A DNA stretch of 24,000 nucleotides from Desulfobacterales bacterium (GCA_050115795.1 JASFPT010000025.1:235-24234), one strand, 5' to 3'; counted from the first letter of the stretch, positions 1 to 24,000 are shown. Numbers and translations are program-made. The notes: a model not told the origin generated them from the sequence alone.

Positions 1-955
1 GCCGAGCGTCGTTGGGGTCGACCGTGTACAGCACGCCGCTGACCCGGGCGTCGATCATCGCAATGCAGGCAACGCTCATGACGACGTCCTGATCCGTGTA
101 GCCTTTTTTCCGGCGATAGAAAATGGCCCGGGGATTGAAGGTGCTGGCCACCACCTTCCGGTAGGCGCTGGAAATCCCGTCGGGACCGACATTGAGAACC
201 GTCGAATGCTGGCCTGCAAAGCTGGCTTCGGTGTCTTCGCTGGTAGCGCTGCTGCGAACAGAAAGCCGCGTGTCGGCGCCCTGGTAATTCAGGAGCCGGG
301 CGGCGGCCTGGAGCATCTCCGCTTCGAGCTGTTTTGGAATTTCCGCCGTCAAAATCCGATCGCAGATCTCTTTGCTGACGGCGATCAGCGCCTCGGTGTT
401 GTCGACGTCCAGTCGGCGCAGACGTTTTTCGATGAATTCCTCGAGTCGGTTGTGATCGAGAAATTGCTGGCAGGCATAGGCCGTAACGGCGAATCCGGGG
501 GGTACCCGCAGATGCGCGCGGTTGGAAATCTCTCCGAGGTTGGCGGCTTTGCCGCCGACATGGGCGGCATCGTCCTGGCTGAGGTTCTCCAGGCCGATGA
601 CCAAGGGGGTGGTTTCGATCTGCTTCTTGTGCACCAGGTCCTTCAAGGCCAGGCTGCCGATCTGTTCGGCGGCATCGAAAAGCCCGGGGAACCGGGCTCC
701 GGAAAGCGCATTGAGATCTTCGACGATGCCGTAGACTTCACCCAGAAGGCGTTCGGTCTGCATCAGCACCTGACCGAGGGTGAACGGGCGGTCCCGGTAA
801 AAAGAGTCCTCCAGTTCGGCAATGAGCTCCAGCGCCCGGTTGTTTGCGGAAAGAAGGCGTTGAAAAGAAGCGAACTTCGGCTTCGGCAGCCGACCCGTCG
901 CCGTGCTGCCCGTGCGGGCTTCCCTGCCCTTGAACAAGTCGAAAAACTTAAACAT
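1..955 (-). CDS. PEP-utilising dikinase-family protein (PPDK_N ATP-grasp domain), N-terminal 318 codons; 3' end lies beyond the window start
   Basis: My own translation of the minus strand from ATG 955..953 gives MFKFFDLFKGREAR...HVGGKAANLGEISN...LSVRSSATSEDTEASFAGQHSTVLNV. GGKAANLGE and RSSxxxED..SFAGQ are signatures of the PEP synthase/PPDK nucleotide-binding domain. It is absent from the ORF track because it runs off the edge. The listed + ORF 206..1069 is its antisense shadow. It aligns along its whole visible length with 5392..7980. Confidence 0.85.
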   Translation of the reverse strand, partial: MFKFFDLFKGREARTGSTATGRLPKPKFASFQRLLSANNRALELIAELEDSFYRDRPFTLGQVLMQTERLLGEVYGIVEDLNALSGARFPGLFDAAEQIGSLALKDLVHKKQIETTPLVIGLENLSQDDAAHVGGKAANLGEISNRAHLRVPPGFAVTAYACQQFLDHNRLEEFIEKRLRRLDVDNTEALIAVSKEICDRILTAEIPKQLEAEMLQAAARLLNYQGADTRLSVRSSATSEDTEASFAGQHSTVLNVGPDGISSAYRKVVASTFNPRAIFYRRKKGYTDQDVVMSVACIAMIDARVSGVLYTVDPNDAR

Positions 956-1280
956 CGCGATGGCCTCTGCGCCTATTCAGAAAGAAGAGGTGAACGTGCG
1001 CTGCAGCCGCTTTCCCCCAGTGCCGGAAGACGGCGGCAGCCGGCATTTGTATCCTTTCCTGTATGTTGAAGTACGTGCATGCCCACGTCAAGTAAAAGAG
1101 ATGCGGCAGGCGGGTCTTGTGCCGAAATGCAATCCGTCCCTGACCCGAAGACCCTCCTTGGCGAGTGGAGCGGATCGTGTGCCGCCCATATTTTGATGGA
1201 GAGGGTCTTCCCAAAGCCGCGATTGTGGTCCCTTTGGTGAGATTTCTTCCCAAAAACCCTGATTATCCGCCTTTTTCCTA

Positions 1281-1309
1281 TTGACACCATTTTTCTATTC
1301 TTGTAAATG
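1281..1309 (+). promoter_or_regulatory. Candidate sigma70 promoter of the HU gene
   Basis: Perfect -35 TTGACA at 1281-1286. After a 16-17 nt spacer there is a weak -10 (GTAAAT/TAAATG, 1303-1309). It lies about 60 nt upstream of the HU ATG in an AT-richer patch. Confidence 0.45.
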
Positions 1310-1367
1310 CTGGTTGCACAGAGGCGAGGAGGCCTGAACCGCAACCATTAGCACAAGGGGGAAACAG

Positions 1368-1640
1368 ATGACGAAGGCAGAATTGATCGAAAAGATGGCG
1401 AAGGAAGCGAAAATTTCCAAAGCCGCGGCCGGCAAAGCGCTCGATTCCTTCATGGACGGGGTGACCAAGGCCCTCAAGAAAAAGGACGGCAAAGTGACCT
1501 TGGTCGGCTTCGGCACGTTCCAGAAATCCCGCCGCAAGGCCCGCAAGGGACGCAATCCCCAGACCGGCAACCCCATCAAGATCAAGGCCAAAAACGTGGT
1601 CAAGTTCAAGCCGGGCAAGAAATTGAAGGACGCCATCTAA
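1368..1640 (+). CDS. hup: HU family nucleoid-associated DNA-binding protein
   Basis: The 90-aa ORF MTKAELIEKMAKEAKISKAAAGKALDSFMDGV...VTLVGFGTF...RKGRNPQTGNPIKIKAKNVVKFKPGKKLKDAI has the classic HU/IHF fold sequence, including the RNPQTG arm. SD GGGGGA lies 5 nt upstream. Confidence 0.95.
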   Translation: MTKAELIEKMAKEAKISKAAAGKALDSFMDGVTKALKKKDGKVTLVGFGTFQKSRRKARKGRNPQTGNPIKIKAKNVVKFKPGKKLKDAI

Positions 1641-1663
1641 ACGCCGGCCTGAAAAGATGCCGA

Positions 1664-1698
1664 GGCGGCCCGGCCCTCTGCCGGGCCGCCTTTTTTTT
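1664..1698 (+). terminator. Rho-independent terminator of hup
   Basis: GGCGGCCCGG (1664-1673) pairs with CCGGGCCGCC (1681-1690) around a 7-nt loop. A T8 run follows at 1691-1698. It starts 24 nt after the HU stop. Confidence 0.85.
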
Positions 1699-1747
1699 GC
1701 CGACCCTTCCGCTGGCACAATGCATGATGGCTGCCCCGCCGCCATGG

Positions 1748-1763
1748 CTGGCACACTCCTTGC
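1748..1763 (+). promoter_or_regulatory. sigma54 (-24/-12) promoter upstream of usp
   Basis: TGGCAC-ACTCC-TTGCT matches the TGGCAC-N5-TTGCW consensus with exact GG-N10-GC spacing. It lies 168 nt upstream of the usp ATG and downstream of the hup terminator. Nearly identical to the element at 5281-5295. Confidence 0.7.
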
Positions 1764-1930
1764 TGTTCATCAAGAAGAAAGCTGCCGCGCACAACCCGAG
1801 GCGGCAGCCCCGGTCGAGTCCCCGACGGTCCTGCCGGCGGGCCTGTTCCTTTTCCCATTTTCAGACTTCCGGCCGGCCGGGCGTCTGGCGATAAAGGCTG
1901 CCGACAACATCTCAACCTGGAGGCGAATCG

Positions 1931-2323
1931 ATGAAAATCATGGCCTGTTTTGATGGATCGAATGTGGCCGAAGAAGTGGTTCGGCTGGCCGGCGTCCACG
2001 CAGCGGCCTTCGGCGGCGAGGTGTGGATCGTCACCTCGATGGCGGGAGGCCCCGAAGTGGCCAGGCGCGAATTTGACGCCAGGGAGCGGGAGCTGGACTA
2101 TGCCAAGTCGCTCGTCGAGGGTAAATCTCCGGCTGTGGCGGCTCATCTTTCGATTCGAGGGCTTTCTCCCGGCGAGGACCTGGTTCAGCTGGCAAGGGAA
2201 CAAGGCGTCGGTGAAATCATCATCGGTGTGCGCCGGCGATCCAGGGTCGGGAAACTGGTGTTTGGTTCAACGGCCCAATACGTGATCCTCAATGCGCCCT
2301 GTCCCGTGGTGACGGTCCGGTGA
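1931..2323 (+). CDS. Universal stress protein (UspA family)
   Basis: 130-aa ORF with a Usp C-terminal ATP-binding-type motif: IIIGVRRRSRVGKLVFGSTAQYVILNAPCPVVTV. SD GGAGG lies 8 nt upstream of the ATG. Confidence 0.85.
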   Translation: MKIMACFDGSNVAEEVVRLAGVHAAAFGGEVWIVTSMAGGPEVARREFDARERELDYAKSLVEGKSPAVAAHLSIRGLSPGEDLVQLAREQGVGEIIIGVRRRSRVGKLVFGSTAQYVILNAPCPVVTVR

Positions 2324-2353
2324 TCAGATCACTTCTGCGATATTATCCATGTG

Positions 2354-2381
2354 GTTCGCCTATTGGTTGGGGCGAACTTTT
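2354..2381 (+). terminator. Candidate intrinsic terminator after usp
   Basis: GTTCGCC (2354-2360) pairs with GGCGAAC (2371-2377) around a 10-nt loop, followed by TTTT. The stem is short and the U-tract weak. Confidence 0.4.
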
Positions 2382-2412
2382 CGCGGCGCCCATCGGCGTC
2401 TGACCCCCGAAC

Positions 2413-3018
2413 ATGACACACTACGCTTCCATCAGGGAGTTGGCCGCGCAGGAGCCGCCGGGCCGGGCTTTTCTCGTCCAATGGCGCCGGGCGGCCTCCG
2501 GGCTGATCGTGATGGCCATCCATGGCGGCGGAATCGAGCCCGGCACCACCGAGGTCGCCGATGCTGTCGCCGGAGACCGTCTCGGCTTCTATTCTTTTGT
2601 GGGGATAAAGCGAAGCGGAAACCGCTCTCTTCACCTTTCCAGCCGTTCGTTTGACGAGCCCATCGGCCTGCGGATGGCCGCCTCGGCAAAGACGGTCATC
2701 TCGATCCATGGCTGCAGGGGCCGGGGCGCATGGACTTACCTGGGCGGCCGGGACCAAGACCTACAGCGGTCCGTAGCCGACGCCCTGCAGGCGGCCGGAT
2801 TTTCCGTGGGAACAAGCGCCCGGTTCCAGGGGATCTCTCCACAGAACATCTGCAACCGGGGATCTTCGGGCAAGGGCCTCCAACTGGAGTTAAGCTTCGG
2901 GCTGAGGCGTTCGTTTTTCATCGAGCAGGCGATCGGCGGTCGAAAGCGGCGCCGGGCCGCCTTCAACCGGTATGTGGCGGCCCTCCAAGCCTGCCTCGCA
3001 TCCCCTTCAGTCAACTGA
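2413..3018 (+). CDS. Poly-gamma-glutamate hydrolase family protein (PghP-like, DUF867/YjqB-type)
   Basis: 201-aa ORF with the family pattern MAIHGGGIEPGTTEVA...FYSFVG...GNRSLHLSSRSFDEP...VISIHG...YLGGRD...NICNRG...GLQLELS. No obvious SD, so the start is less certain. Confidence 0.7.
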   Translation: MTHYASIRELAAQEPPGRAFLVQWRRAASGLIVMAIHGGGIEPGTTEVADAVAGDRLGFYSFVGIKRSGNRSLHLSSRSFDEPIGLRMAASAKTVISIHGCRGRGAWTYLGGRDQDLQRSVADALQAAGFSVGTSARFQGISPQNICNRGSSGKGLQLELSFGLRRSFFIEQAIGGRKRRRAAFNRYVAALQACLASPSVN

Positions 3019-3420
3019 TCCGGGCGGGCGCCTTTTTTTATTTTTGGCGGCCATCTTTTCGCAGGCCTGGTTCAGCTTGATCATCAGGTCTTCGAGTTTG
3101 ATCGGCTTCATGAGATAGTCGAACGCCCCGAGCTTCATCCCCTCGATGCTGGTCTCTACCGATGCATGGCCGGTCAGGAGAATCACCTCCACCTCCGGCT
3201 GAATGCGGTGAATTTCCCGGAGTGCCTCGATCCCATCCATGCCCCCGGGCATCTTGATGTCGAGGATGACCACATCATAGGGTTGCCGTCGGATCTGCTC
3301 GACGGCTTCCTCGCCGCTTTCCACGCCGTCGGCAGCAAAGTTTCGCCGCCTGAGCCGGTTGACCAGGGTTTTCAGAAAATCTTCTTCGTCGTCGACGACG
3401 AGTACCTTGTACGTGTCCAT
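3007..3420 (-). CDS. Stand-alone CheY-like response regulator receiver
   Basis: 137 aa: VLVVDDE (acidic pocket), VVILDIKMPGGMDG (phospho-acceptor Asp), ILLTGHA, DYLMKP. No output domain. SD GGAG lies 5 nt upstream. Its 3' end overlaps the convergent 2413..3018 gene by 12 nt. Confidence 0.92.
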   Translation of the reverse strand: MDTYKVLVVDDEEDFLKTLVNRLRRRNFAADGVESGEEAVEQIRRQPYDVVILDIKMPGGMDGIEALREIHRIQPEVEVILLTGHASVETSIEGMKLGAFDYLMKPIKLEDLMIKLNQACEKMAAKNKKRRPPGSVD

Positions 3421-3479
3421 GGTGTCTCCGCTTGGACCCGGATAGAAAAAGGTCCTGAGGTGAAGGGCCCGGCCGCGCC

Positions 3480-5141
3480 TTATTTCTTCTCCGGGAGAAC
3501 AATGGGGATCTGAACGGTGAACGTGGATCCCTCTCCCTTGCGGCTGAGCACCGTGATGGTCCCCCCCATCTTTTCAATGATGGAATGGCTGATCCACAGA
3601 CCCAGCCCGGTTCCTTTCCCGGGCGCCTTGGTCGTGAAAAACGGGTCAAAGACCCGGCGCTGCTGCTCCTCGGTCATCCCGGGTCCATCGTCTTCCACGC
3701 GGACCAGAATGCTGCCCCGGGAGACCTCGGTGTTGATCCGGATCAGGCCGTCTTTGCCGATCGCATCGATGGCGTTGGTCATCAGATTCAAGAACACCTG
3801 TTGAAGCTGGGATTGGTCGCTGGCGATGATCGGCAGCTTCGGACCGAACTCGGTCCGGATCTCGATGTCATTGATCCTCGCGTAGTTTTGCAGCAAATCG
3901 ATGGTTTGGTTCACCACGGCGTTGACGTCCACATCCTCCAGGTGGGGCTCCATTTTTCGTGCATAGCCCAGCATCCCCTGGACGACCTTCCGTGCCCGGT
4001 CCACGTGCTCTTCGATCTTCCGGATGGAGGTTTTCAACTCCTCCAGGTTTTCACTGTCCTTGAACTCTTCCTCTTCGAGCAGGTCTTCCATCCAGCCGGT
4101 TTTTTGCAGGATCACGGCCAGCGGGTTGTTGATTTCGTGGGCGACGCCGGCGGCCATTTTCCCAAGGGCGGCGAGCTTGTCGGATTGAATCAACTGCGCG
4201 TTGAGCTCGTTCATCTGCTGATCGGTCTTGCGCAGGCGGTCGATGATCGCACCGGTGATCAGCACAGTCGCCAGCAAAATGGCCACCATCCCGACGCTGA
4301 TGATCAAGATCTCGGTGGCCCGGGTGGCGAACAGGCGGCTCATCTCTTCTTCGGTCCCCTGGCTGACCACCAGCAGCCACTTGTTGTTTTTCAGCCAGGC
4401 CCCGGAGATCAGCCGCGTAAATCCATTATCGCTTTTTCTTTCGATGACAGTGGTGCTGCCGCCGAACAGCTGCGGGTCGATTTCCGAAGGTTCCATAATT
4501 TTTCCGGCAAACCGGGGGGCGGTTTGAAAAACCCCGGACCGGTTGACGATGTAGGCGTCTCCCGTCCGCCCGACATGGGCAGCCCGAACGAGGTTGCCGA
4601 ACACTTCCGAGTCGACCGTCGCCCGGAGAATCCAGGTCCGTTCCTGTTCCTGGCGCCGCAGCGCGATAATGAAATGGGGGGACCGGCGAAACCCCATGTA
4701 CACGTCGCTGATGTGAAGCCCCCGGGCCATGGTTTCGGCAAACCAGGGCTCCTGGTCGTAGCGCAGCCCCGTTAGTGCATACGGCCCGACGTAGGCCCGG
4801 TGCCGGCCCCGGCTGTCGATGACGCCCAGATCCACGAAGGCCCCGGCCCGAGTGTTCATGACCTCCAGGACACGGGCCAGATTGCCGCTGTCGAGCATGT
4901 GCTGGAAGCTGTGGGTGTCGGCCATGGCGGACAGGATCGCCGAGCGCTCCTTCAAGAAAAGATCCACGGCCGTGGCCTGCGCCTGGGCGCGGTAGCGCAA
5001 CTGTTCTTCGATTTTGGCCCGGATGGTGTCGTAAAATTGCAGATAGATCGTGACGCCGAGGATGAGCAGCGGAGTGAAAGAGACCAGCAGCGTGACCAGG
5101 ACGATGATCCGTTGCAGGCGGGCATATCGCGTCGCTTTCAT
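3480..5141 (-). CDS. Sensor histidine kinase with periplasmic Cache-like domain
   Basis: 553 aa. TM1 (IIVLVTLLVSFTPLLILGVTIYL) and TM2 (ILIISVGMVAILLATVLITGAII) flank about 250 aa. H-box AAGVAHEINNPLAVI, N-box LNLMTNAIDAI, G-boxes DDGPGM and GKGTGLGLW. SD AGGAG lies 5 nt before the ATG. Confidence 0.92.
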   Translation of the reverse strand: MKATRYARLQRIIVLVTLLVSFTPLLILGVTIYLQFYDTIRAKIEEQLRYRAQAQATAVDLFLKERSAILSAMADTHSFQHMLDSGNLARVLEVMNTRAGAFVDLGVIDSRGRHRAYVGPYALTGLRYDQEPWFAETMARGLHISDVYMGFRRSPHFIIALRRQEQERTWILRATVDSEVFGNLVRAAHVGRTGDAYIVNRSGVFQTAPRFAGKIMEPSEIDPQLFGGSTTVIERKSDNGFTRLISGAWLKNNKWLLVVSQGTEEEMSRLFATRATEILIISVGMVAILLATVLITGAIIDRLRKTDQQMNELNAQLIQSDKLAALGKMAAGVAHEINNPLAVILQKTGWMEDLLEEEEFKDSENLEELKTSIRKIEEHVDRARKVVQGMLGYARKMEPHLEDVDVNAVVNQTIDLLQNYARINDIEIRTEFGPKLPIIASDQSQLQQVFLNLMTNAIDAIGKDGLIRINTEVSRGSILVRVEDDGPGMTEEQQRRVFDPFFTTKAPGKGTGLGLWISHSIIEKMGGTITVLSRKGEGSTFTVQIPIVLPEKK

Positions 5142-5280
5142 GGCAACTCCTGAAGACCTTTGCTCACCGCGGCCGGAACCGGCATTTGCACCCGGAAACC
5201 TGAGCGGGAGCGGCAGCCGCGGCGGCTCGCGGAAAATGGCGAAAAGCGATCCACATCAAAGCGGTGCACCCACATGGAAC

Positions 5281-5295
5281 AGCAAGGAATGTGCC
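5281..5295 (-). promoter_or_regulatory. sigma54 (-24/-12) promoter upstream of the HK-receiver pair
   Basis: The minus strand reads GGCAC-ATTCC-TTGCT with exact consensus spacing, 140 nt upstream of the HK ATG (5141). The 19-nt stretch GGCACATTCCTTGCTGTTC (5295..5277) matches 1749..1767 at 18 of 19 positions. Confidence 0.7.
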
Positions 5296-5391
5296 GGAAA
5301 AACATCCCGGCCTGTCGTAGAATTGATATGGCATTTCAGCTTCTTGGAGATCAATGACACGGGAAAGAATTCCACCGGGTGTCGGCTTTTT

Positions 5392-7980
5392 TTACAAAGG
5401 AAAGAGGCGGTCCAACTCATCTTCGATCTTCTTTTTGTAGAAATTGACCGACGCGGGGTTGGCCATGATCATGTCCAGCTGTCGGGTGTGAATCGTGAGA
5501 TAACCGACGATTTTCAGCCGGTGTTCCATATAGGACTGGTCTCGGCCTTCCAGTCTGGCGATCAGGGAGTCCTCCTTGATGTCCAGCCGAAAGCCGTAGT
5601 CTTCCAGGATCGTTCCGATGAAACGAACCCGCCGGTGCTTTCGATCCAGGTCCGCGGCGCCCCCTTTGAACTGGAAGCTGATGTAGTTTTCCGCTGCGCG
5701 CTCGCTGACGAGGGTCTCCACCGTGGCGAAGTGAAACCCGAATCGGGAGTTCAGGCTGCAGTAATTTCTGGAGATCATGAAGTAGTTGCGGGTGGCGAAC
5801 CGGCTTCGACGGCCGAGGATGAGGTCCTGGTTGGTGGTGGCCTGAAACAGGACCGACATCATTCCGCGGCCGTCGACGGGCGGGGGGCCTTCCCACGGAC
5901 TTGCGGTGATTCCCGCCCAGAGGGCGCGCATCGGAACGGAGACGATCTGCTCGAGGTTCACATAGGGGCCATTGATCTCGCCGACGAAGCCGTCGTCCAG
6001 GTTCAGGACCCACCACTTCATCGGGACCCGGGCGATGAGCTGCTTGCTGGACCTCTCCGGGAAGTGATGATCCCTGCCGAACCGGAACATTTCGGCGACC
6101 GCCTTTTCGTGGCAGAACCGGGTGATGTCATGAAAGGTGCGGCAATTGTCGGCCTTAAACGAGGGGGCGTCCGGATCGAGCAGGTTCAGGGGGATGATGT
6201 GCTCGGCGGCGCCGCGCAACGCCTCGTAGACCGGGCTGCCGGCCATCAGATTGCGGGCCGCCGGCTTTCGGCCGAGAACGGCATCGATCCGGCCCGAATA
6301 GATGCGGCACCGGCCTGCGTCCACGGTGACGATTTCCTCCGGCGGCAGGCGGGTGGCCCCCCTTATGCCGAAAAGGGCCGGGACACCGAACTCGCGGGCG
6401 ACATTGGCCAGGTGGCCCGCCATGCTTCCCTGTTCGGTGACCACGGCAGCGCAGCGATCCAAAAGAGGGGCCCACCGGGGAAGGGCTTGTTCGGCGACCA
6501 GCACGGCGTCTTTCGGAAACCGCAGGGCATCGATGTTTTTCCGGACCACGAACACCGGGCCGGCTGCAGCCCCGCTGCTGGCGGTGCTTCCGCCCGTCAA
6601 GAGAATCTCTTGCCCGTCGGCTTGAAGATCGGGTTCGCCATTGCTGTCTCCGGATTGCTGCCGCTCCAGGGGGCGGCATTGGAGCACGACGAACTCTCCT
6701 TCGTCGGAAAGCGCCCATTCGATGTCCAGGGGCATGCCGTAGTGGGTTTCGAGGCGGACGGCCATGGCGGCCAGGGTTGCCGCCTGGTCGTCGGTCAAAG
6801 ACGCCGATCGGCTTTCCTGGTCCACCGCGTCCAGTCGGCAGACCCCCTCTTCGGGATAGCAGACGAACTTGAGCCGCTTTTCCGGTATCTCCTTTTCCAG
6901 CACTTCCGGTGACGGGCCCCGCGACAAAACGAAGCGGTCCGGGTTCACCGTGCCGTCGACCACCGATTTGGGAAGCCCCCATACCGAGTGAATCAGGACG
7001 TGCTCGTGCCGGAAATCGACCGGGTTCCGGGAATAGGCCACCCCGCCGGATACGGCCGGCACCATCCGCAGGCAGCCGACGCACATCGTCACGTCCTCGT
7101 CGCGGATACCGCGGCTGAACCGGTAGGAGATGGCGGCCAGGCCGTATTTGCTGGCGATGATCTGGCGGTAGGCGTCGATGATATGGTCGGGGTCGACATT
7201 GAGTTCGGATCGGTACTGGCCGGCAAAGGAGGCCCCCACCACATCTTCGCCCAGGGCGCTGCTCCTCATGGCAACGCTGAAAGACTCCCCTTCATGGCGG
7301 GCCAGGCGCCGGTGGTGCCGCTCGATCTCCTGTTGCAGCTCAGGTGGGATTTCTGCGCTCATGATGAGCTGCTGGATGTCGGAGCTCAGGGCGAAACGTT
7401 CTTCGAGCCGCTCCAGGTCCGCGGCCTGAATGCGGCGGTCGATTTCCGGTTGAAGGTCGTTGTGGGTCATGAACTGCTGGTAGCCGGAGGTGGTGACGGC
7501 AAACCCCCGTGGCGTCTTGAGCCCGACGCGGTTGGCAATCTCGCCGATGTTGGCCATCTTGGGGCCGACCTGGCCGGCCCGGGATGCGTCGATGTTTTCC
7601 AGCGGGAGCACCAGCGGCCCGCCCAGCCGATCGCTTTTGGGCCACACATGCGGGTTGATGGCCATCTGGATCTGCTTGAACCGATCAAAAAGAGCGGAAT
7701 ACCGGTCCGGGGCCAGCGCATCGATCTGCCGGACGATCTGAAAGACCTGGGTCGATGTCCGCGTGCAGCGGGAGCGAACGAAACGCATGGAGAAGGGAAA
7801 GTTGCCGGCCAGGGCCGACTGGATTTCGGCCATCGTCTCCAGGGTGGAGTTGTTGGCGCTGAGAAGAAGTTTGAAACGGTGGTAGCGGTCTTTGAAGGCG
7901 ACCCGCAGCTGCCGGGCGTCATTGGGTTCGGCCGCTTTGTCGCGTTTTCGCGAAAACAGGTGTTGGAAGAACCGGACCAT
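5392..7980 (-). CDS. PEP-utilising dikinase-like protein: N-terminal extension + PPDK_N ATP-grasp + phosphohistidine swivel domain + non-canonical C-terminal domain
   Basis: ORF 5392..8118, trimmed to ATG 7980 (MVRFFQHLF...), which aligns with the start of the paralog at 955 (MFKFFDLF...). ATP-grasp motifs: GQVGPKMANIGE and AMRSSALGEDVVGASFAGQYRSELNV. Swivel domain: VVTEQGSMAGHLANVAREFGVPALFG, with the His codon at 6414..6412. The last ~290 aa lack the NDL/CGE-type motifs of the PEP/pyruvate TIM-barrel domain. Confidence 0.85.
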   Translation of the reverse strand: MVRFFQHLFSRKRDKAAEPNDARQLRVAFKDRYHRFKLLLSANNSTLETMAEIQSALAGNFPFSMRFVRSRCTRTSTQVFQIVRQIDALAPDRYSALFDRFKQIQMAINPHVWPKSDRLGGPLVLPLENIDASRAGQVGPKMANIGEIANRVGLKTPRGFAVTTSGYQQFMTHNDLQPEIDRRIQAADLERLEERFALSSDIQQLIMSAEIPPELQQEIERHHRRLARHEGESFSVAMRSSALGEDVVGASFAGQYRSELNVDPDHIIDAYRQIIASKYGLAAISYRFSRGIRDEDVTMCVGCLRMVPAVSGGVAYSRNPVDFRHEHVLIHSVWGLPKSVVDGTVNPDRFVLSRGPSPEVLEKEIPEKRLKFVCYPEEGVCRLDAVDQESRSASLTDDQAATLAAMAVRLETHYGMPLDIEWALSDEGEFVVLQCRPLERQQSGDSNGEPDLQADGQEILLTGGSTASSGAAAGPVFVVRKNIDALRFPKDAVLVAEQALPRWAPLLDRCAAVVTEQGSMAGHLANVAREFGVPALFGIRGATRLPPEEIVTVDAGRCRIYSGRIDAVLGRKPAARNLMAGSPVYEALRGAAEHIIPLNLLDPDAPSFKADNCRTFHDITRFCHEKAVAEMFRFGRDHHFPERSSKQLIARVPMKWWVLNLDDGFVGEINGPYVNLEQIVSVPMRALWAGITASPWEGPPPVDGRGMMSVLFQATTNQDLILGRRSRFATRNYFMISRNYCSLNSRFGFHFATVETLVSERAAENYISFQFKGGAADLDRKHRRVRFIGTILEDYGFRLDIKEDSLIARLEGRDQSYMEHRLKIVGYLTIHTRQLDMIMANPASVNFYKKKIEDELDRLFPL

Positions 7981-8006
7981 TGCCGTATCCGGAAGGTGCC
8001 CGCATA

Positions 8007-8021
8007 TGCACTGCCTGTGCC
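8007..8021 (-). promoter_or_regulatory. sigma54 (-24/-12) promoter upstream of the dikinase-like gene
   Basis: The minus strand reads GGCAC-AGGCA-GTGCA, with correct GG-N10-GC spacing and one mismatch in the -12 TTGC. It sits in the 165-nt gap between genes. The predicted TSS lies about 16 nt before ATG 7980. Confidence 0.55.
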
Positions 8022-8076
8022 GGTTGCCGAAACGGTGCTGCGGCGGCTGTCCTCTGCAGCGGTGAACCCGGGAAAG

Positions 8077-8115
8077 CCCCGTTGCGAACCTGTCAGAGGC
8101 AGGATCGCAACGGGG
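8077..8115 (-). terminator. GC-rich hairpin/palindrome: candidate terminator-attenuator or enhancer (UAS) site
   Basis: Perfect 11-nt arms CCCCGTTGCGA (8077-8087) and TCGCAACGGGG (8105-8115), plus an inner CCTG/CAGG pair in the 17-nt spacer. It starts 30 nt after the stop of 8146..8832 and is centred about 80 nt upstream of the 8007-8021 sigma54 element. Only a weak CTTTC follows on the minus strand. Confidence 0.4.
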
Positions 8116-8145
8116 CAAGGCAGCTGCCCGCAGGTCCTTGCAGGT

Positions 8146-8832
8146 CTAGTGGCCGAGCTCCATCCCCCAGCCTTCGAACATGAACATGATCCCGAACCCG
8201 TACCAGAGGGTGTAGGCCACGTAAAAGATCAGGGAGAGGAGAACCACCCAGATCTGTTCCATGATGTGCTGGGGAGCGATGCCGTAGTAGTTATAGGCGG
8301 TTTCAACGGCCTTGCCGGAGGCGAACAAGATGATATTCGCCTCCTTGAATTTTTTTTGTTTCTTCAGGCTCTTGTCCATAACCTGAAAAGCGGTCCACCA
8401 GTTGTACAACACCTGCCGTTCGTCGTAGCCGTACTTCTGCACCACGGCCGCTCCCTGATTGTAGTACATTTTGTCGGCGTCTTCCAGGGCGTTTTCCAGG
8501 ACCTTTCCCAGGTCTGCGCTGACGGCAAGCGTGGAACCGTTTACATTGACCAGCGCGCCGCTTTTCATCAGCAGCGTTGCGGTCTGCTGCGCCTGCCGGT
8601 CGTCTTTCATCTCGAGGGTGACCTGGATCTGGTTGCCGGCAAACGCGGCGGCCTCCTCTTTGACCTTGGGAATGTAATAGGCCGACCCCTTGGAGATCGA
8701 GTTGTACAGGTCGTCCAGGTATTGGAGCCCGTTATGGCCCTTGATCAACGGCATGAACATCAGAACGAGGATGATGAAAAAGGCGATTATCATGCCGAGG
8801 CCGAGCGCGAATTCTTTTTTGTGGGCTATCAT
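8146..8832 (-). CDS. Hypothetical two-TM membrane protein, translationally coupled to the TauE-like permease
   Basis: ORF 8146..8925, trimmed to ATG 8832..8830, which overlaps the upstream TGA (8831..8829) as ATGA. 228 aa: N-terminal TM (LGLGMIIAFFIILVLMFMPLI), a ~150-aa Lys/Asn/Tyr-rich soluble domain, and a C-terminal TM (IWVVLLSLIFYVAYTLWYGFGIMFMF). I recognise no family. It is visibly less GC-rich than its neighbours. Confidence 0.7.
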   Translation of the reverse strand: MIAHKKEFALGLGMIIAFFIILVLMFMPLIKGHNGLQYLDDLYNSISKGSAYYIPKVKEEAAAFAGNQIQVTLEMKDDRQAQQTATLLMKSGALVNVNGSTLAVSADLGKVLENALEDADKMYYNQGAAVVQKYGYDERQVLYNWWTAFQVMDKSLKKQKKFKEANIILFASGKAVETAYNYYGIAPQHIMEQIWVVLLSLIFYVAYTLWYGFGIMFMFEGWGMELGH

Positions 8833-10127
8833 GACAACGCCCCTCCTTTCAGCACGCGGATGTTTTTCAAAAAGGTTCCGATGACCCAAACCCCGAAGCC
8901 GCCGATGACGATGAAAAAGGCCCATATCCCGATGGTGTTCAGGAAATCGCCGAGCCCCTTGGGGATCGGGATGATTCCCATGGCCCCGAGTTTGGACGGC
9001 AACGCGAAGATCCGGTTCACGAAGCCTGCCAGCACCGCCATGGCGTAAAAGCCTCGGATCGTGATGCCGGGCACCACCTTGGTGACCATGGCGCCGATCT
9101 GGATGCCGAGAAGGGAGCCGAGCAGCATCCCCATGGCCAGGGTGTAGAAGATGAACCCGTAGATGGCGTACTGGCTGATGGAGGCATAGCCGGCGGTGAA
9201 AACGATCTGGAAAATGTCCGTTCCCACCGTGGTCATCGAAGAGACCCCCAGCATGTAGACAAAGATCGGAAAGGTCAGAAATCCGCCCCCGACCCCCATG
9301 ATGCCGGCGGCCAGGCCCACGAGGGCCCCGGAGAGAACCAGAAACAGCCAGGAAATGCTGCGTCCCCCGGGGGTAAAATCAAAATCGAACTTGACCATGG
9401 GCGGCAGGGTGATGGACTGAAGCTTTTTCGGCAGGCCGCCCATTTCAGCCCCTTCGACTTTTCCACCGTGGGCCCCGCCGCCGTGAGGGGCCTGACCCTG
9501 CGAAATTTTTCTCGCCTTGAGAAAATCGACCATGGCGTAAATGCCGAGAAAGCCGAGCATCAGCGCATAGATCGTCGTGATAAAGGCGTCGGACAGCACC
9601 GGATTGATCTCGTAGAGCACCCGGTTGATAACGCCGCCGACCGTGGCCCCGACGATCGCACCGATCAAAAAGACCACGGCCAGCGGGACCGACACATTGC
9701 CCAGCTTGCGGTGGATGACGCTGCCCATGATCGCCTTGGCAAAGATGTGGAACAGGTCGGTGCCCACGGCCAAGATGCCCTTGATGCCCGCGCTCATCAG
9801 CGCCGGGGCGATGATAAACCCTCCACCGGCCCCGATGCAGCCGGTGATCAACCCCGCACCCATTCCGATCAGAATCGACACGATGAAGATCCCGGTGGAA
9901 TAATAGGCAGGGCTGTAGGCACCCTTGCCGCCGATAATGCTGGGCAGGGCGCCTCCGATCTCCTCGGCAAAAGCGATGCCGCAAAGAACCGGCGGAACGC
10001 TCAGCAAAAAGAGGAGCAACAGCCGCCTCCGGTCATGGATAATCGTGTCGGCGACCCGAATCTCCCACCGGGCGTGGGCCTGGGCTCCGGCCAGCATAAA
10101 TTGTCCCCATCGTCTGAGAAATTTCAT
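8829..10127 (-). CDS. TauE/SafE (DUF81) family anion permease
   Basis: Two internal halves carry the family Gly-rich motif: GCIGAGGGFIIAPALM and GIMGVGGGFLTFPIFVYM. It is polytopic. I prefer the ATG at 10127 (MKFLRRW...), which has SD AGGAG 10 nt upstream and a signal-peptide-like RRRLLLLFLLSVPPVLCGIAFA. The upstream 44 codons of ORF 8829..10259 look non-coding. Confidence 0.8.
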   Translation of the reverse strand: MKFLRRWGQFMLAGAQAHARWEIRVADTIIHDRRRLLLLFLLSVPPVLCGIAFAEEIGGALPSIIGGKGAYSPAYYSTGIFIVSILIGMGAGLITGCIGAGGGFIIAPALMSAGIKGILAVGTDLFHIFAKAIMGSVIHRKLGNVSVPLAVVFLIGAIVGATVGGVINRVLYEINPVLSDAFITTIYALMLGFLGIYAMVDFLKARKISQGQAPHGGGAHGGKVEGAEMGGLPKKLQSITLPPMVKFDFDFTPGGRSISWLFLVLSGALVGLAAGIMGVGGGFLTFPIFVYMLGVSSMTTVGTDIFQIVFTAGYASISQYAIYGFIFYTLAMGMLLGSLLGIQIGAMVTKVVPGITIRGFYAMAVLAGFVNRIFALPSKLGAMGIIPIPKGLGDFLNTIGIWAFFIVIGGFGVWVIGTFLKNIRVLKGGALS

Positions 10128-10269
10128 TTTGACTCTGCTCCTGTTTGGTTGTGAAAAGACACCGGCGGCTTTCCCGGAGGTCCCCGCCCCGCGGGGATTT
10201 GACCGGATCGGTATTGGTTGCCATCGGTTGCAGACCGTTTTCGGGCATCCGTTCTCCACTCTTCCGCCG

Positions 10270-10680
10270 TTACAGTTTGATTTGAATCTGGCGAATTTTT
10301 TCTTCCTGGATCGCCTTTTTCTTGTGGGCGTCCTGCACCTTGTAGAGCAGTTCGTCGAGGTCGACCGGTTTCATCAGGTAGTCGAAGGCGCCCAGCTCCA
10401 TTCCCTCGACGGCCACTTCCATGTTGGCATGACCGGTCAACAGGACGACCTCCACCAGCGGGAATCGTTTCCGGATCTCGCGAAGGGTCTCGATGCCGTC
10501 CATCCCGGGCATCCGGACATCGAGCACGACGACGTCGAATTCTTCCCGTTGGAGAAGGTCCAGGGCTTCAAAACCGCTCTGCACGCCCGCAACAGTCGTG
10601 TTCCGTTTCTGAAGCCGTTTGACGATGGTTTCCAGAAAGTCCGTTTCATCATCGACCAAAAGTACTCTACAGTCGGTCAT
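10270..10680 (-). CDS. Stand-alone CheY-like response regulator receiver
   Basis: 136 aa: VLLVDDE, VVVLDVRMPGMDG, VLLTGHA, DYLMKP. Clear paralog of 3007..3420. SD GGGAGA lies upstream. Confidence 0.92.
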   Translation of the reverse strand: MTDCRVLLVDDETDFLETIVKRLQKRNTTVAGVQSGFEALDLLQREEFDVVVLDVRMPGMDGIETLREIRKRFPLVEVVLLTGHANMEVAVEGMELGAFDYLMKPVDLDELLYKVQDAHKKKAIQEEKIRQIQIKL

Positions 10681-10890
10681 AACTTTCTCCCGGACGCGGC
10701 TCCCACGCTATGCCTTTCCAGGACTCGACGCACAATTTCCGGGGCCGAGACCTTTCCGGCCCCGCGGGCCGGTCGGCCCCCGGCAAAACCGCGCCGGAAA
10801 AGCATTCTCCCGGATTTGTGTCCATAGGAAATGGGATGCATCACCGATCTTTCTCTTCGGGCTGCAGGAGCGCACCGTGGCGGCAGCAGA

Positions 10891-11271
10891 TCAGGGGGAG
10901 GCGGCCGGTTTCCGGAGCATTTCGGCGACGGCCCCCTTCAGATCCTCGATGCTGCCGCCTTGTTTTTCCACAAAGGAAGTCGTGGACGCACTCGGGTGCT
11001 GGCGGTATTCCGCCCAGAATCCGTGGAGCACCACCGACACCCCGGGGGCCTGCTCGCGGATCTTCTCCAGGACCTTGAGTTCCCGCTCGTCGGGAAGGTT
11101 CAGGTCCAGGACGATCAGGTCCATCGGCTCCCCGTTCGAAAGCCGGTCCAGCACCTGGCGTCCATTTTTCGCCAAAAGGACTCGATATCCTTCAACAGAC
11201 AGCTCCCGCTGCAGGTAGTCGCGCACATGCCGGTTCCGGTCGGCCACCAGGATGGTAACGGCTCTCTTCAA
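10891..11271 (-). CDS. Atypical (partly degenerate) receiver-domain protein
   Basis: Receiver-like sequence TILVADRN...MDLIVLDLNLPD...VVLHGF...FVEKQG. The phospho-acceptor Asp is kept, but His replaces the conserved Thr/Ser and KQ replaces KP. I place the start at TTG 11271 (SD GGAGAAGGG, 3 nt spacer). The in-frame ATG at 11337 is part of a consensus sigma54 promoter. Alternative starts are 11337 and 11412. Confidence 0.65.
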   Translation of the reverse strand: MKRAVTILVADRNRHVRDYLQRELSVEGYRVLLAKNGRQVLDRLSNGEPMDLIVLDLNLPDERELKVLEKIREQAPGVSVVLHGFWAEYRQHPSASTTSFVEKQGGSIEDLKGAVAEMLRKPAASP

Positions 11272-11321
11272 GCGCCCTTCTCCATGAAAATTCTTTTTCC
11301 AGCTTTTCCACGGATTTTCAG

Positions 11322-11336
11322 GCAACCTCCGTGCCA
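11322..11336 (-). promoter_or_regulatory. sigma54 (-24/-12) promoter upstream of the receiver-TauE gene string
   Basis: The minus strand reads TGGCAC-GGAGG-TTGC, a full match to the TGGCACG-N4-TTGC core. The predicted TSS (~11310) lies about 40 nt upstream of the TTG/SD at 11271. Confidence 0.7.
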
Positions 11337-11489
11337 TTTTTTTCGGGCGCGCGCATCCCGGTTTTTGTGCGGCGTCAGTCGGCGTTTTTGCCCTGTAAGA
11401 ATCGCGGTCCAACCGCCCCAGCCGTTGGTGGCTTGCCTGAAAAATGTCGATCCGGGCACCGGCTCAGATGCCGCCGGGCGTGTCCGGTT

Positions 11490-14162: not shown

Positions 14163-14453
14163 TCAGCAGCAGCTGCCGCTGCCGCAGGCGGCTTTGTCTT
14201 TGCCGCGGACCCAGGACTGGATGATGTAAGAGGCGCAGCCGACCCCCGGGTGCACCGTCACCGCCGCCGTGGGGCAGTTCATGGCGCAGGCCCCGCACTC
14301 CATGCAGCCGTCGGCGTCGACGACCCGGGCCTTTTCCCGTTCCAGCACCAGGACGCCGTGGGGGCAAACGGTCGTGCAGGCGCCGCAGCCGACGCAGAGG
14401 CCGTCATCGAGCTGGAGTGTCGTCACGCCGGTCAGGTATCGGAATTCTCTCAT
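14163..14453 (-). CDS. hgcB: HgcB, 2x[4Fe-4S] ferredoxin of the mercury methylation pair
   Basis: Last 96 codons of ORF 14163..15506, from ATG 14453: MREFRYLTGVTTLQLDDGLCVGCGACTTVCPHGV...DGCMECGACAMNCPTAAV...PGVGCASYII...CGSGSCC. It has two CxxCxxCxxxCP motifs, the extra conserved Cys (GVGCA) and the C-terminal vicinal CC typical of HgcB. It starts 23 nt downstream of the hgcA stop. Confidence 0.9.
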   Translation of the reverse strand: MREFRYLTGVTTLQLDDGLCVGCGACTTVCPHGVLVLEREKARVVDADGCMECGACAMNCPTAAVTVHPGVGCASYIIQSWVRGKDKAACGSGSCC

Positions 14454-21825: not shown

Positions 21826-23385
21826 TCAGGCGGGAGGGGGCGGGACCGAAGGAAACCGCTTCGGGTCGGTGTGGGGGTAGAATTTGGCCGCCGAAAACCG
21901 GTTCATGAAATCCTGGTTCACGTTCAGTTCGAGGTAGGTGATCCGGTCCCGGATCCGGTCGAGTTCTTCGACCGCAGAAGCGTCGGTCAGCGCTCGGGCG
22001 GCGCCCTCCAGGCTGCTGTTTCCGAGGGCTACGTAGCGCTGCAGGCCGATGTCCGGCAGCATGCCGATGGCGATGGCCGATTCGGCCCGGATGAAGGAGC
22101 CGAAAGTGCCGGCCACGTGGAAGGCGGCCAGTTCGTCGAAAGACACCCCCACCGTGAGGGTCAGGGTTTCCAGGATCGTATACATGGCGGCTTTGGATCG
22201 GGTCAGACTGTCCAGGTCGATCTGGCTCAAGGTCAGTGGCTTTCCGGTGGCCGACGTCCTTTCGTCTGCGACGAGGAAGGTGTCGATGCCGTCGCGGTCG
22301 ACCAGCCGGCTGCCGCATCGGGACGCAACAAATTTTCCGCGCATGTCGACCATCCCGGCCAGAAAGAGCTGTGCCGCCAGATCGATGAGGCCCGAGCCGC
22401 AAATGCCGATTGGCGGCAGATCCTCGATGGTGTGAAGTTCGACCGTACCGGTTTTCGGGTCCACCTGAACCCGGTCGATGACCCCCGGTGCGGCGTTCAT
22501 CCCCATCCGGGTGACGCCGCCCTCCAGAGCCGGTCCCGCCGCGCCGGCACAGGCGATGAGCCAGTTTTCATTTCCCAGCACCACCTCGGCGTTGGTGCCC
22601 ACATCGACCAGGATCGTGGTCTCGGCCCTGCGGTGAATTCCCGAATGGAGAATGCCGGCGATCAGATCGCCCCCGAAATAGCTGCCGATGTTCGGAAACG
22701 TGAGCAGCCGGCAACGGGGATGCACGTTCAGGCCGATTTCTCCGGCGCGGATCACCGGCAACCGGTTCGCCGCGGGGATGTAGGGCTCCCGGATGATCCA
22801 CCGGGGGGGGAGGCCCAGAAACAGATGGGTCATGGTCGTGTTGCCCGCGGCGCTGACCAGGACGATCTCCTCGGGCTCGGTTCCGGCGCGGGTGCAGATT
22901 GCTTCGACCTCCCGATTCAGCGCGGCGATGATCCGGCCGTGCAGGTCCTGCAGTCCTCCGGGGCGGTCCGCATGGTGAATCCTGGCCAGCACGTCGGGCC
23001 CGATTTCGATCTGGGGATTGTCGAAGGCGGCTTCGGCCAGGGTTTTCCCCGAATCGAGGGCCACCAGGCGAAGCACCACGCGGGTGGTGCCGATGTCCAC
23101 GGCAAGACCGGGGATGGGATCCGTCCGGGAGGGGTCGTAGACTTCCAGCAGGGCCCAGCGCCCCCTTTCCGGAAACACGACGCAGCGGGCGTTCCACCCC
23201 CACCGGCGGAGGCGTTCGGGCAGCCGGCGCAGCAGGGACAGGTCGGGAGCCAGCTCCGGCAGGCCGGCCTGCCGTTTCAGCACACCCATGAGCCGGTCGG
23301 CGTCTGCGCTATTGTCTTCCAGGGAAGGCGGGGAAAGAGATACGTCATGAATCCAGGCCGATTCGGTCATGGGGTTCCGTGACAT
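21826..23385 (-). CDS. ASKHA-fold DUF4445 protein, RACo-like (corrinoid reductive activase family) lacking the N-terminal [2Fe-2S] ferredoxin domain
   Basis: 519 aa. Family pattern: LAVDIGTTRVVL, SAAGNTTMTHLFLGL, ILVDVGTNAEVVLG, CAGAAGPALEGG, GICGSGLIDL, VAGTFGSF. The first ~100 aa contain a single Cys, so no ferredoxin-type cluster motif is present. The start could be ATG 23385 or ATG 23370. Confidence 0.8.
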   Translation of the reverse strand: MSRNPMTESAWIHDVSLSPPSLEDNSADADRLMGVLKRQAGLPELAPDLSLLRRLPERLRRWGWNARCVVFPERGRWALLEVYDPSRTDPIPGLAVDIGTTRVVLRLVALDSGKTLAEAAFDNPQIEIGPDVLARIHHADRPGGLQDLHGRIIAALNREVEAICTRAGTEPEEIVLVSAAGNTTMTHLFLGLPPRWIIREPYIPAANRLPVIRAGEIGLNVHPRCRLLTFPNIGSYFGGDLIAGILHSGIHRRAETTILVDVGTNAEVVLGNENWLIACAGAAGPALEGGVTRMGMNAAPGVIDRVQVDPKTGTVELHTIEDLPPIGICGSGLIDLAAQLFLAGMVDMRGKFVASRCGSRLVDRDGIDTFLVADERTSATGKPLTLSQIDLDSLTRSKAAMYTILETLTLTVGVSFDELAAFHVAGTFGSFIRAESAIAIGMLPDIGLQRYVALGNSSLEGAARALTDASAVEELDRIRDRITYLELNVNQDFMNRFSAAKFYPHTDPKRFPSVPPPPA

Positions 23386-23397
23386 TCAGAAGCGGGT

Positions 23398-24000
23398 TTA
23401 CAGCAGGGCCTCGACTTTTTCCACCAGCTGGGCCATGACGTCCGCCGCTTTGCCGGGGATTCGGTAGTCGCTGACCCACCCGGTCAGGGGCGTTTCCTCT
23501 TCGTTCAGCTCGATGATTCTGGCGCCGGCCTGCTTGGCAATGATCGGCATGGTCGCCGCCGGCTGAACGGTGGCCGAGGTGCCGATGACCAGCATCACCT
23601 TGCAGCCGGTGCTGGCCTGCTGGGATCGCATCAACGCCAGCGGCGGGATCGTCTCTCCGAAAAAGACGCACTCCGGCCGCCAGATCCCGCCGCAGCTGCA
23701 CAGGGGCGGGATGCGGCTCAGATCAAGGGCCGATGTCTTTTCCCGGCGGTTGCACCGGATGCATCGGTGGCTGGCGAAAGTCCCGTGAAACTCGATCACG
23801 TCGGTGTTTCCGGCGGCCTGATGGAGCCCGTCCACATTCTGGGTGATGACGGTTTTCAGCAGGCCCAGCTCCTCCAGGCGCGCCAGGCCCATGTGGGCCG
23901 GATTCGGCCGGGCCGTGTCGAGCAGTTCTTTCATGTCCTTGAGCAGCACGCTCCAGACCTTGGCCGGATCCTGCAGGAAGGCGTCGATACTCGCATACTC
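23398..24000 (-). CDS. cobB: Sir2 family NAD-dependent protein deacylase (sirtuin), C-terminal 200 codons; 5' end beyond the window
   Basis: TQNVDGLHQAAG, catalytic EFHG, Zn-ribbon CIRCN...CSCGG, VIGTSATVQPAA and IIELN. The reading frame stays open to position 24000 (..EYASIDAFLQDPAKVWSVLLKDMKELL..). Confidence 0.88.
   Translation of the reverse strand, partial: EYASIDAFLQDPAKVWSVLLKDMKELLDTARPNPAHMGLARLEELGLLKTVITQNVDGLHQAAGNTDVIEFHGTFASHRCIRCNRREKTSALDLSRIPPLCSCGGIWRPECVFFGETIPPLALMRSQQASTGCKVMLVIGTSATVQPAATMPIIAKQAGARIIELNEEETPLTGWVSDYRIPGKAADVMAQLVEKVEALL

Follow-up and report, generated by a model that had tools for sequence, protein, structure and literature searches.

We report a conserved four-gene unit in a 24,000-nucleotide stretch of DNA from a Desulfobacterales bacterium (GCA_050115795.1, JASFPT010000025.1:235-24234), called the window below. 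The unit consists of a stand-alone receiver (RR_B), a permease of the TauE/TSUP family (TauE), a small protein with two transmembrane (TM) segments (TM2) and a dikinase-like protein (DIK) with a phosphohistidine swivel domain. At a probability of roughly 0.4, we propose that these four parts together control or energise the flux of sulfur oxyanions of the thiosulfate/sulfite/sulfate class in sulfate reducers and sulfur disproportionators. The four genes are part of a run of seven co-oriented minus-strand genes, which the initial annotation had singled out from the sequence as a possible signalling or phosphotransfer module. All seven genes were recovered with the domains named there (Pfam), and the end of the run, given as 11336, was corrected by one base to 11337, since the ATG of the last receiver (RR_C) occupies 11337-11335. 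The run is a composite: the conserved core of RR_B, TauE, TM2 and DIK together with RR_C is joined to an accessory pair, the histidine kinase HK with a Cache domain and the receiver RR_A.

Conservation of the core in relatives

In a scan of one genome per species, at least 593 genomes encoded a relative of DIK. The 80 closest (53-74% identity) were retrieved with their flanks as loci, labelled L0xx, and mapped with the window proteins. Sixty-one loci had 3 kb or more of sequence upstream of the DIK gene; of these, 60 contained TM2, 59 TauE and 60 an RR_B-type receiver (at least 55% identity). This linkage spans Desulfobacterales, Syntrophobacteraceae, Desulfomonile, Desulfarculus, Desulfatiglans and Desulfacinum. 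The order RR_B-TauE-TM2-DIK was seen in most Desulfobacterales, Desulfatiglans, Desulfomonile and Desulfacinum loci, the order TauE-TM2-RR_C-RR_B-DIK in Syntrophobacteraceae, and a divergent layout in Desulfarculus (L047 and L058). Since the linkage survives rearrangement into three gene orders, it points to function and not to inertia. The cluster had been proposed initially as a possible signalling or phosphotransfer module, and the co-occurrence of its core in 59 to 60 of 61 loci, over several orders and not in one clade only, supports a functionally linked module of signalling and transport and argues against chance.

To the initial question whether DIK co-occurs with receivers, a Cache kinase and TauE, the answer was yes for the receiver and TauE. 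The kinase is no constant member: of 35 loci, 19 had an HK homolog in the interval -7/+5 kb around DIK. In the isolate Desulfatiglans anilini DSM 4660 the module is made up of RR-TauE-TM2-DIK only, and the genes called in the 10 kb on each side included no kinase. The number of receiver-only genes per relative locus ranged from one to six, and anion permease genes of the DASS and PHO4 families flank the module in relatives.

Domain architecture of DIK

DIK and TM2 are each 100% identical to a database protein. The database name for DIK is 'pyruvate, water dikinase', and wherever members of the family are named beyond the domain level they are labelled phosphoenolpyruvate (PEP) synthase or pyruvate, water dikinase. 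Pfam placed the PPDK_N ATP-grasp domain (PF01326, E 4e-91) at residues 137-449 and the PEP-utilizers mobile domain, which is the swivel (PF00391, E 3e-18), at residues 488-556. The swivel carries the catalytic His523 (nt 6412-6414), which bears out the initial description of a dikinase-like protein with its own phosphohistidine swivel domain. This histidine (G522-H523-L524) and the ATP-grasp motif RSSALGED were invariant in 23 DIK orthologs. The two catalytic domains are preceded by a family-specific N-terminal domain (aa 1 to ~125), for which no secondary structure was predicted, and followed by a C-terminal domain (aa 566-862). An invariant histidine of the N-terminal domain was considered as an HPt-like site and ruled out, as it was conserved only in close orthologs.

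PEP synthase and pyruvate phosphate dikinase have the ATP-grasp followed by a central swivel in the same order as DIK. DIK differs from PEP synthase in having no PEP/pyruvate TIM barrel, in its N-terminal domain of ~120 residues and in its novel C-terminal domain of ~300 residues. If DIK were a gluconeogenic PEP synthase as annotated, its neighbours would be unrelated to it. The database name and the best NCBIfam and PDB matches, all to PEP synthases, speak for this, and an enzyme of Dissulfuribacter was read as gluconeogenic (PMC13490349). These matches covered the protein only partially, however. The PEP synthase models NF005057 (332 bits, cut-off 598; aligned over positions 6-471 of the 798 in the model) and TIGR01418 (318 bits against 740) both stayed below their cut-offs, the PEP synthase structure 2ols_A aligned to residues 124-569 (E 2.5e-63), and PEP synthase profiles and structures as a whole aligned to residues ~120-570 only. 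Beyond residue 556 there was no Pfam match and the PEP-utilizers_C TIM-barrel domain was not found; the first ~120 and the last ~300 residues had no match in Pfam, NCBIfam or PDB sequences. Given the missing PEP-utilizers_C domain, the sub-cut-off scores, a C-terminal fold modelled without a TIM barrel and the near-universal synteny with receiver and permease genes, a role as PEP synthase in gluconeogenesis was ruled out as the working assignment and is, in our estimate, very improbable.

Phenylphosphate synthase, rifampicin phosphotransferase (RPH) and PigC/RedH are ATP-grasp and swivel-histidine enzymes in which the pyruvate domain has been swapped for another substrate domain. The C-terminal domain of DIK had no match to any of them. 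DIK has its swivel in the centre; RPH and PigC instead place the substrate domain there and the swivel at the C-terminal end. RPH and PigC models matched the ATP-grasp of DIK with scores far below their cut-offs; NF041857 (RPH/PigC-type) gave 222 bits against a cut-off of 999, over the ATP-grasp portion only. An enzyme of the RPH/PigC type was therefore ruled out by domain order and score. The PEP-utilizers mobile domain is also shared with Enzyme I of the phosphotransferase system (PTS), where the acceptor of the mobile-domain phosphohistidine is a protein that docks on a separate helical subdomain. Enzyme I may serve as a working analogy for the N-terminal domain of DIK and a protein partner. 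It is charged from PEP via a TIM barrel, whereas DIK has an ATP-grasp and no HPr-like gene accompanies it here.

The C-terminal domain and the DIK family

The C-terminal region was the most conserved part of DIK, with the motifs HDITRFCHEK, NLDDGF, FKGGAAD and HTRQLDM in 23 orthologs. An AF2 model of residues 566-862 built with 81 diverse sequences reached a pLDDT of 89.4 and a pTM of 0.81; with 17 close sequences the model of the same residues was poor (pLDDT 61). The domain is thus confidently modelled as a mixed α/β fold with no TIM barrel. When the model was compared with the PDB using Foldseek, the best hit had an E value of 0.048 and TM-scores were at most 0.25, that is, no solved relative was found. 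A profile of the domain had no match among PDB sequences, and a search of a plasmid collection with the domain found nothing.

With E values up to 1e-3 the same profile collected 1359 clusters (50% identity level), of which 672 had E up to 1e-30. Apart from evident fragments, almost all of the 150 best clusters were proteins that measure ~830-940 aa and carry the domain at their C-terminal end. The initial annotation had also noted a DIK paralog at the edge of the window (1..955). This paralog is real, its visible part being the N-terminal domain and the ATP-grasp. Its orthologs are of ~850 aa, have the same C-terminal domain and occur in variable contexts; in the two contexts examined there was no adjacent receiver or TauE. 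Matches in the homology search with the paralog fragment were mostly short or fragmented gene calls. A gene for an HU/IHF-like DNA-binding protein (1368-1640, plus strand, 90 aa), recognised by eye, lies between the paralog and a universal stress protein gene.

Receivers stay with DIK forms that have lost catalysis

The swivel histidine was lost in 10 of 80 representative DIK-family clusters, mostly by a change to Arg. A 'dead' subfamily, in which this histidine is replaced by Ser or Arg and the RSSxxED motif of the ATP-grasp is lost, includes proteins of D. vulgaris and D. legallii (Table 1). The D. vulgaris gene begins 38 nt after a canonical receiver gene, with no TauE nearby. On the metagenomic contig L089, a receiver and a dead DIK lie ~2 kb from the dissimilatory sulfite reductase genes dsrA, dsrB and dsrD (1603-4394), which is one more hint at a link to sulfur metabolism. 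In D. legallii the dead form is encoded first in an operon that also includes a live DIK, whose identity to the window DIK is 43% across the full length. Further reduction was found in proteins of 421-423 aa that consist of just the N-terminal and the C-terminal domain (L093, 7001-8272; L094, 4812-6077), and in a stand-alone C-terminal domain protein of 317 aa that directly precedes an RR-DIK pair (L091, 8627-9580). The reduced proteins of L093 and L091 adjoin receivers. The receivers directly upstream of the D. vulgaris, L089, L086 and L093 forms are canonical, with the phosphorylation residues kept, and are 51-57% identical to RR_B.

As the receiver pairing is kept with dead or core-less DIK, the constant partner of the receiver is the unit that DIK's N-terminal and C-terminal domains form (N/C unit) and not the phosphohistidine. 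This favours an action of the phospho-receiver on DIK over a charging of the receiver by DIK. Of the two directions proposed in the initial annotation, regulation of DIK by the receivers fits the data, and the feeding of phosphoryl groups from DIK into the receivers is disfavoured as a general mechanism because receivers stay with DIK forms without the histidine, the swivel or the catalytic core.

In the latter scheme DIK, driven by ATP or PEP, would pass phosphoryl groups from its swivel histidine to the orphan receivers and so stand in for a histidine kinase in an Enzyme-I-like manner. Receivers do outnumber kinases, three to one in the window, and 16 of 35 loci had no homologous kinase within -7/+5 kb, with none near the D. 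anilini module; transfer of a mobile-domain phosphohistidine to a protein is also established for PTS Enzyme I. We nevertheless consider this scheme improbable. Canonical receivers are kept beside DIK forms unable to carry a phosphohistidine (His to Ser/Arg, swivel deleted, N-plus-C only), roughly half of the loci have Cache kinases with the module, and we know of no His-to-Asp transfer from a PEP-utilizers domain.

We rather propose, as a possible but still doubtful extension, that the DIK family is an unrecognised class of effectors for single-domain receivers, in which the N/C unit would read the phospho-receiver and the inserted ATP-grasp/swivel engine of most members would gate a two-subunit TSUP permease post-translationally. 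If true, DIK would add to two-component signalling a third tier that is non-transcriptional and controls sulfur-oxyanion traffic in sulfate reducers, and the module might reveal a new output route for single-domain response regulators.

The TauE-TM2 permease pair

The window TauE shares with the TauE/SafE/TsaS family (TSUP, TC 2.A.102) a PF01925 match above the cut-off (122.7 bits against a gathering score of 32.6), and it is a multi-TM protein with a 4+4 TM repeat layout. It has in addition an N-terminal extension and a long central loop. TauE orthologs were 54-86% identical in 59 of 61 loci, and the core of the protein was nearly invariant among 61 sequences. TM2 has TM segments near residues 5-34 and 190-219, and the ~160-residue domain between them is probably periplasmic. 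No match to TM2 was found in Pfam, NCBIfam or the PDB, including a profile search against PDB sequences. It had 3179 homologs, unnamed throughout among the matches listed, and its start is supported by the identical 228-aa database protein.

The coupling of the two genes noted initially was confirmed by an ATGA overlap at 8829-8832. The gap between TauE and TM2 was at most 20 nt in nearly all loci, and in two genomes both were joined in one in-frame open reading frame (ORF) of ~660 aa (L011, 7455-9440; L049/L081, 7768-9756). From this small gap nearly everywhere and the fusions, TM2 is a probable subunit of the TauE permease. To our knowledge, neither such an N-terminal extension, nor a long central loop, nor an obligatory partner protein such as TM2 has been described for characterised TSUPs, and we know of no TSUP permease from sulfate reducers with a defined substrate or regulator.

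Relation to the Desulfovibrio nitrate cluster and to Dissulfuribacter

The initial annotation knew of no described system with this composition, which is incorrect. A similar parts list is found in the 'nitrate cluster' of Desulfovibrio (DVU0251-DVU0245 / Dde_0597-Dde_0605) described by Korte et al. in 2014 (PMC4001038). This cluster codes for a TauE-like permease together with a conserved hypothetical and a PtxB-like protein; a PAS kinase, a stand-alone receiver, a PPDK_N/PEP-utilizers protein and a phosphatase complete it, and in strain G20 there is also DUF169 (PMC4001038). D. vulgaris transposon mutants in DVU0246, DVU0247, DVU0250 and DVU0251 grew with 100 mM nitrate as they did without it, while nitrite was still inhibitory (PMC4001038). 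Pooled G20 mutants of the cluster gained fitness in 150 mM nitrate and were mildly impaired with thiosulfate, and a leaky thiosulfate transporter was proposed by the authors (PMC4001038). Since mutants in the permease, the small protein, the receiver and the dikinase share a phenotype, the parts of the nitrate cluster act in one pathway. Export of anions through TauE, as suggested initially, is not indicated; only the Desulfovibrio genetics bears on direction, and it points to anion entry (PMC4001038).

In composition the nitrate cluster resembles the window, being a co-oriented set with a TauE-like permease and an adjacent small protein, a kinase and a stand-alone receiver, which in the nitrate cluster lies directly before the PPDK_N/PEP-utilizers protein. 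The nitrate cluster has in addition the PtxB-like periplasmic protein, a dual-specificity phosphatase and DUF169 (G20), none of which was seen among the window ORFs. Its kinase is of the PAS/HAMP type and the window kinase of the Cache type, and it has one receiver whereas the window has three. From their lengths and the adjacency of DUF169, its TauE (320 aa) and small protein (195 aa) are probably a second TSUP subtype, as found in L091, and not a TauE-TM2 pair.

Desulfovibrionaceae loci were reached via cluster representatives of the DIK C-terminal-domain family. L091 and L092 encode relatives of the window parts: TauE (56% identity, full length), TM2 (profile E 4e-72), RR (47%), DIK (41%) and the Cache HK (34%). 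In L091 the receiver lies directly before DIK and the kinase after it, and in D. legallii the order is kinase-receiver-DIK; the DIK proteins of both are related to that of the window over the full length. The 243-aa protein paired with the 420-aa TauE of L091 is a TM2 homolog. Beside this module, L091 carries a second permease set (1127-3829, minus strand), in which DUF169 is joined by a TauE of 401 aa and a membrane protein of 191 aa. In composition and size this set corresponds to Dde_0597, Dde_0598 and Dde_0600, at the start of the G20 nitrate cluster, and to DVU0250. DUF169 was found near the module in L081, L091 and L093. The dead paralog of D. vulgaris was 114 aa shorter in the original annotation (773 aa) than in the current one (887 aa), and a similarly short annotation could explain why DVU0246 is listed at 744 aa.

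A second report comes from Dissulfuribacter thermophilus, where the consecutive genes DITHS69_1988-1990 were annotated in a 2026 proteomics study as PEP synthase, 'transmembrane protein co-occurring with sulfite exporter TauE/SafE' and TauE/SafE (PMC13490349). All three proteins were more abundant under thiosulfate disproportionation, and in that study the enzyme was assigned to gluconeogenesis and the permease to export (PMC13490349). This gene order matches DIK-TM2-TauE, the homology being drawn from annotation and order only. A comparative study of sulfate transporters made no mention of kinases, receivers or dikinases next to TSUP genes (PMC5840216), and our literature search found no paper that treats the module across Desulfobacterota or proposes a mechanism. 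As the parts list was noticed genetically in Desulfovibrio in 2014, the module is not categorically new. The literature searched contains neither the breadth of its conservation, nor the pairing of TauE with TM2, nor the novel DIK domain together with the dead, split and stand-alone forms found.

How sulfate reducers take up sulfur oxyanions, and how they regulate this, is a weakly understood part of their physiology, and species-level genomes with the module number at least 593. Whether the cells are inhibited by nitrate, which is used against oil-field souring, is decided by the Desulfovibrio counterpart of the module; the reading of DIK as an effector, if true, would also explain the nitrate-resistance cluster. 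Working out the interplay of receiver, phosphohistidine enzyme and permease would give the module a function and correct a widespread annotation error. Mutant libraries exist for D. vulgaris and G20, and the four-gene form of D. anilini DSM 4660 is the minimal one.

Proposed mechanism

For the four-part unit we infer a mechanism in four steps, together with the direction from receiver to DIK, the phosphoryl acceptor, the substrate and the direction of transport. A sensor kinase would phosphorylate RR_B; in the window this may be the periplasmic Cache kinase, and elsewhere a second Cache kinase with further receivers. Phospho-RR_B would then dock on the non-catalytic N/C unit of DIK. This docking would switch the ATP-dependent autophosphorylation of His523, as it occurs in PEP synthase. 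Finally, a phosphoryl group or a conformational state would be passed to TauE-TM2 or to a ligand of the C-terminal domain, and anion transport would open or close.

Several points weigh against this proposal. The TauE-linked subfamily conserves the catalytic core strictly, and the acceptor could equally be a small molecule. The nitrate cluster and the window genes were likened by composition and description only, and the DUF169-TauE(401 aa)-191-aa set of L091 is a different TSUP subtype whose 191-aa protein is no TM2 homolog. In the D. thermophilus paper, two different locus tags are given for the 'PEP synthase' (PMC13490349). The conservation statistics, moreover, cover the 80 closest of at least 593 relatives.

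A small-molecule acceptor is the basis of one alternative. DIK would be a water dikinase comparable to phenylphosphate synthase or rifampicin phosphotransferase, with a C-terminal domain that binds and phosphorylates the solute of TauE-TM2 for trapping or activation, while the receivers would only tune expression or activity. The intact ATP-grasp and swivel histidine, invariant in the TauE-linked subfamily, are in keeping with this, as are the tight linkage of enzyme and permease and the replacement of the substrate domain by a conserved domain rich in invariant His, Arg and Asp and bearing FKGGAAD. Nitrate resistance could likewise follow from the loss of such an enzyme, provided that uptake depends on trapping or that it is the product that is toxic (PMC4001038). 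We hold this alternative to be unlikely, as substrate binding alone explains poorly why the C-terminal domain is conserved without the catalytic histidine, the swivel or the core, and even as a 317-aa protein beside a receiver; nor do we know of a candidate substrate. The strict conservation of the ATP-grasp and His523 in the TauE-linked subfamily means that catalysis matters there.

Receivers, accessory kinase and transcription

None of the three receivers has an output domain, as stated initially; each is of 136-148 aa and consists of a REC domain only. The window has, like a classical two-component system, a histidine kinase with a sensor domain and receivers, yet no receiver-output fusion. 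RR_A and RR_B have the full D-D-D-T-K receiver set, and RR_B is canonical with an NtrC-like REC domain. An alignment to CheY showed that RR_C keeps the acceptor Asp but has D-R for D-D and His at the Thr position, so that the term 'degenerate' used for it was fair. As the ADRN and V-H-x-F substitutions of the RR_C type are common to 25 homologs in related loci, RR_C is a conserved atypical receiver and not a decaying gene. RR_B is the receiver that travels with DIK. RR_A travels with the window-type HK in relatives and is the partner of the Cache kinase.

Just one histidine kinase was seen among the window ORFs, as had been claimed. In HK two TM segments flank the Cache domain, that is, dCache_1 is periplasmic. 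The Cache kinase and RR_A did not hold up as part of the module core, since the kinase is found in only part of the loci and usually together with a DASS gene. In 10 of 43 loci a window-type HK ortholog (57-71% identity) lay no further than 3 kb downstream of DIK, and window-type HK with RR_A is usually found downstream of DIK after a gene for a DASS (Na_sulph_symp) permease. Of the 80 loci, 15 have this DASS gene, which the window lacks. Upstream of TauE, many Desulfobacteraceae carry two or three receivers together with a second Cache kinase (~36% identical), and some relatives have up to three DASS/Cache HK/receiver sets as well as PHO4 and CBS genes around the core.

A sigma-54-like match between DIK and HK suggests that HK and RR_A may form a transcription unit of their own, to judge from the consensus match. 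Exact motifs of the sigma-54 type (TGGCAY-N5-TTGCW) were found 61-212 nt upstream of TauE in L040, L044, L052, L054 and L062, where TauE is 59-61% identical to that of the window; two of these five loci are labelled Desulfomonile. Sigma-54 promoters are not general in relatives: the matches were only sporadic (5 of 60 TauE genes), and most other loci lack the motif. In another part of the window, a perfect sigma-54 consensus, TGGCACACTCCTTGCT, lies at 1749-1764 on the plus strand, 167 nt upstream of the universal stress protein gene (1931-2323); no gene for a sigma-54 activator was seen among the window ORFs.

The GC-rich hairpin in the TM2-DIK spacer has only TTT as its 3' flank and would thus be a weak terminator or a processing site at best; it could be an attenuator or a processing site. 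An Rfam scan of the whole window gave neither a riboswitch nor a leader. The base composition of the window is ~60% GC, and the plus-strand ORFs that overlap the cluster are the usual spurious ORFs of such DNA.

Table 1. Features of the cluster in the window, and dead or reduced DIK forms in relatives (positions in relatives are those of the respective locus)
Feature	Sequence	Position	Strand	Length	Description
Paralogous DIK-family gene, 5' part	window	1..955	minus	318 aa	truncated by the window edge
RR_A	window	3007-3420	minus	137 aa	receiver only; Response_reg, E 7e-32 (Pfam)
HK	window	3480-5141	minus	553 aa	dCache_1 + HisKA + HATPase_c (Pfam)
Sigma-54-like promoter match	window	5281-5296	minus		CGGCACATTCCTTGCT; between DIK and HK; one mismatch, consensus match only
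DIK, dikinase-like protein	window	5392-7980	minus	862 aa	PPDK_N + PEP-utilizers mobile domain (Pfam)
DIK C-terminal domain	window	5395..6285	minus	297 aa	replaces PEP/pyruvate TIM barrel; family-defining
GC-rich hairpin	window	8076-8116	minus		TM2-DIK spacer; 17-nt arms, 7-nt loop; inverted-repeat scan and reading
TM2	window	8146-8832	minus	228 aa	two TM segments, no family match
TauE/TSUP-family permease	window	8829-10127	minus	432 aa	PF01925, E 2.5e-35
RR_B	window	10270-10680	minus	136 aa	receiver only; Response_reg, E 9e-33 (Pfam)
RR_C	window	10891-11337	minus	148 aa	Pfam covers only profile positions 1-78 of 111
Dead DIK, D. vulgaris	L082/L083	10001-12664		887 aa	His to Ser, ATP-grasp motif lost
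Dead DIK	L089	7001-9598			after receiver, beside dsrABD
DIK without swivel domain	L086			765 aa	inside RR-TauE-TM2-DIK set
Dead DIK, D. legallii	L090	7001-9742			order: dead DIK, Cache HK, RR, live DIK

Other genes in the window

Some genes away from the cluster were also recognised. A three-gene set on the minus strand (15872-19732) comprises a transglutaminase gene (TgpA_N + Transglut_core + DUF4129, domain scan) and, by eye, a DUF58-like gene (17818-18795) and a MoxR-type AAA ATPase gene (18800-19732). A rhomboid protease gene (19736-20581, minus strand) and a fragment of a Sir2-like gene (23398-24000, minus strand) were recognised by eye as well, and an EamA permease (20597-21811, plus strand) was found by domain scan. 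The mercury-methylation pair is encoded on the minus strand by hgcA (14477-15715, 412 aa), with a CdhD-type corrinoid domain and the motif NVWCAAGK, and hgcB (14163-14453, 96 aa), a 2x[4Fe-4S] ferredoxin that ends in CGSGSCC. About 6 kb from hgcAB lies a gene for a RACo-type reductive activase of corrinoid proteins (21826-23385, minus strand), in which all three RACo domains are present.

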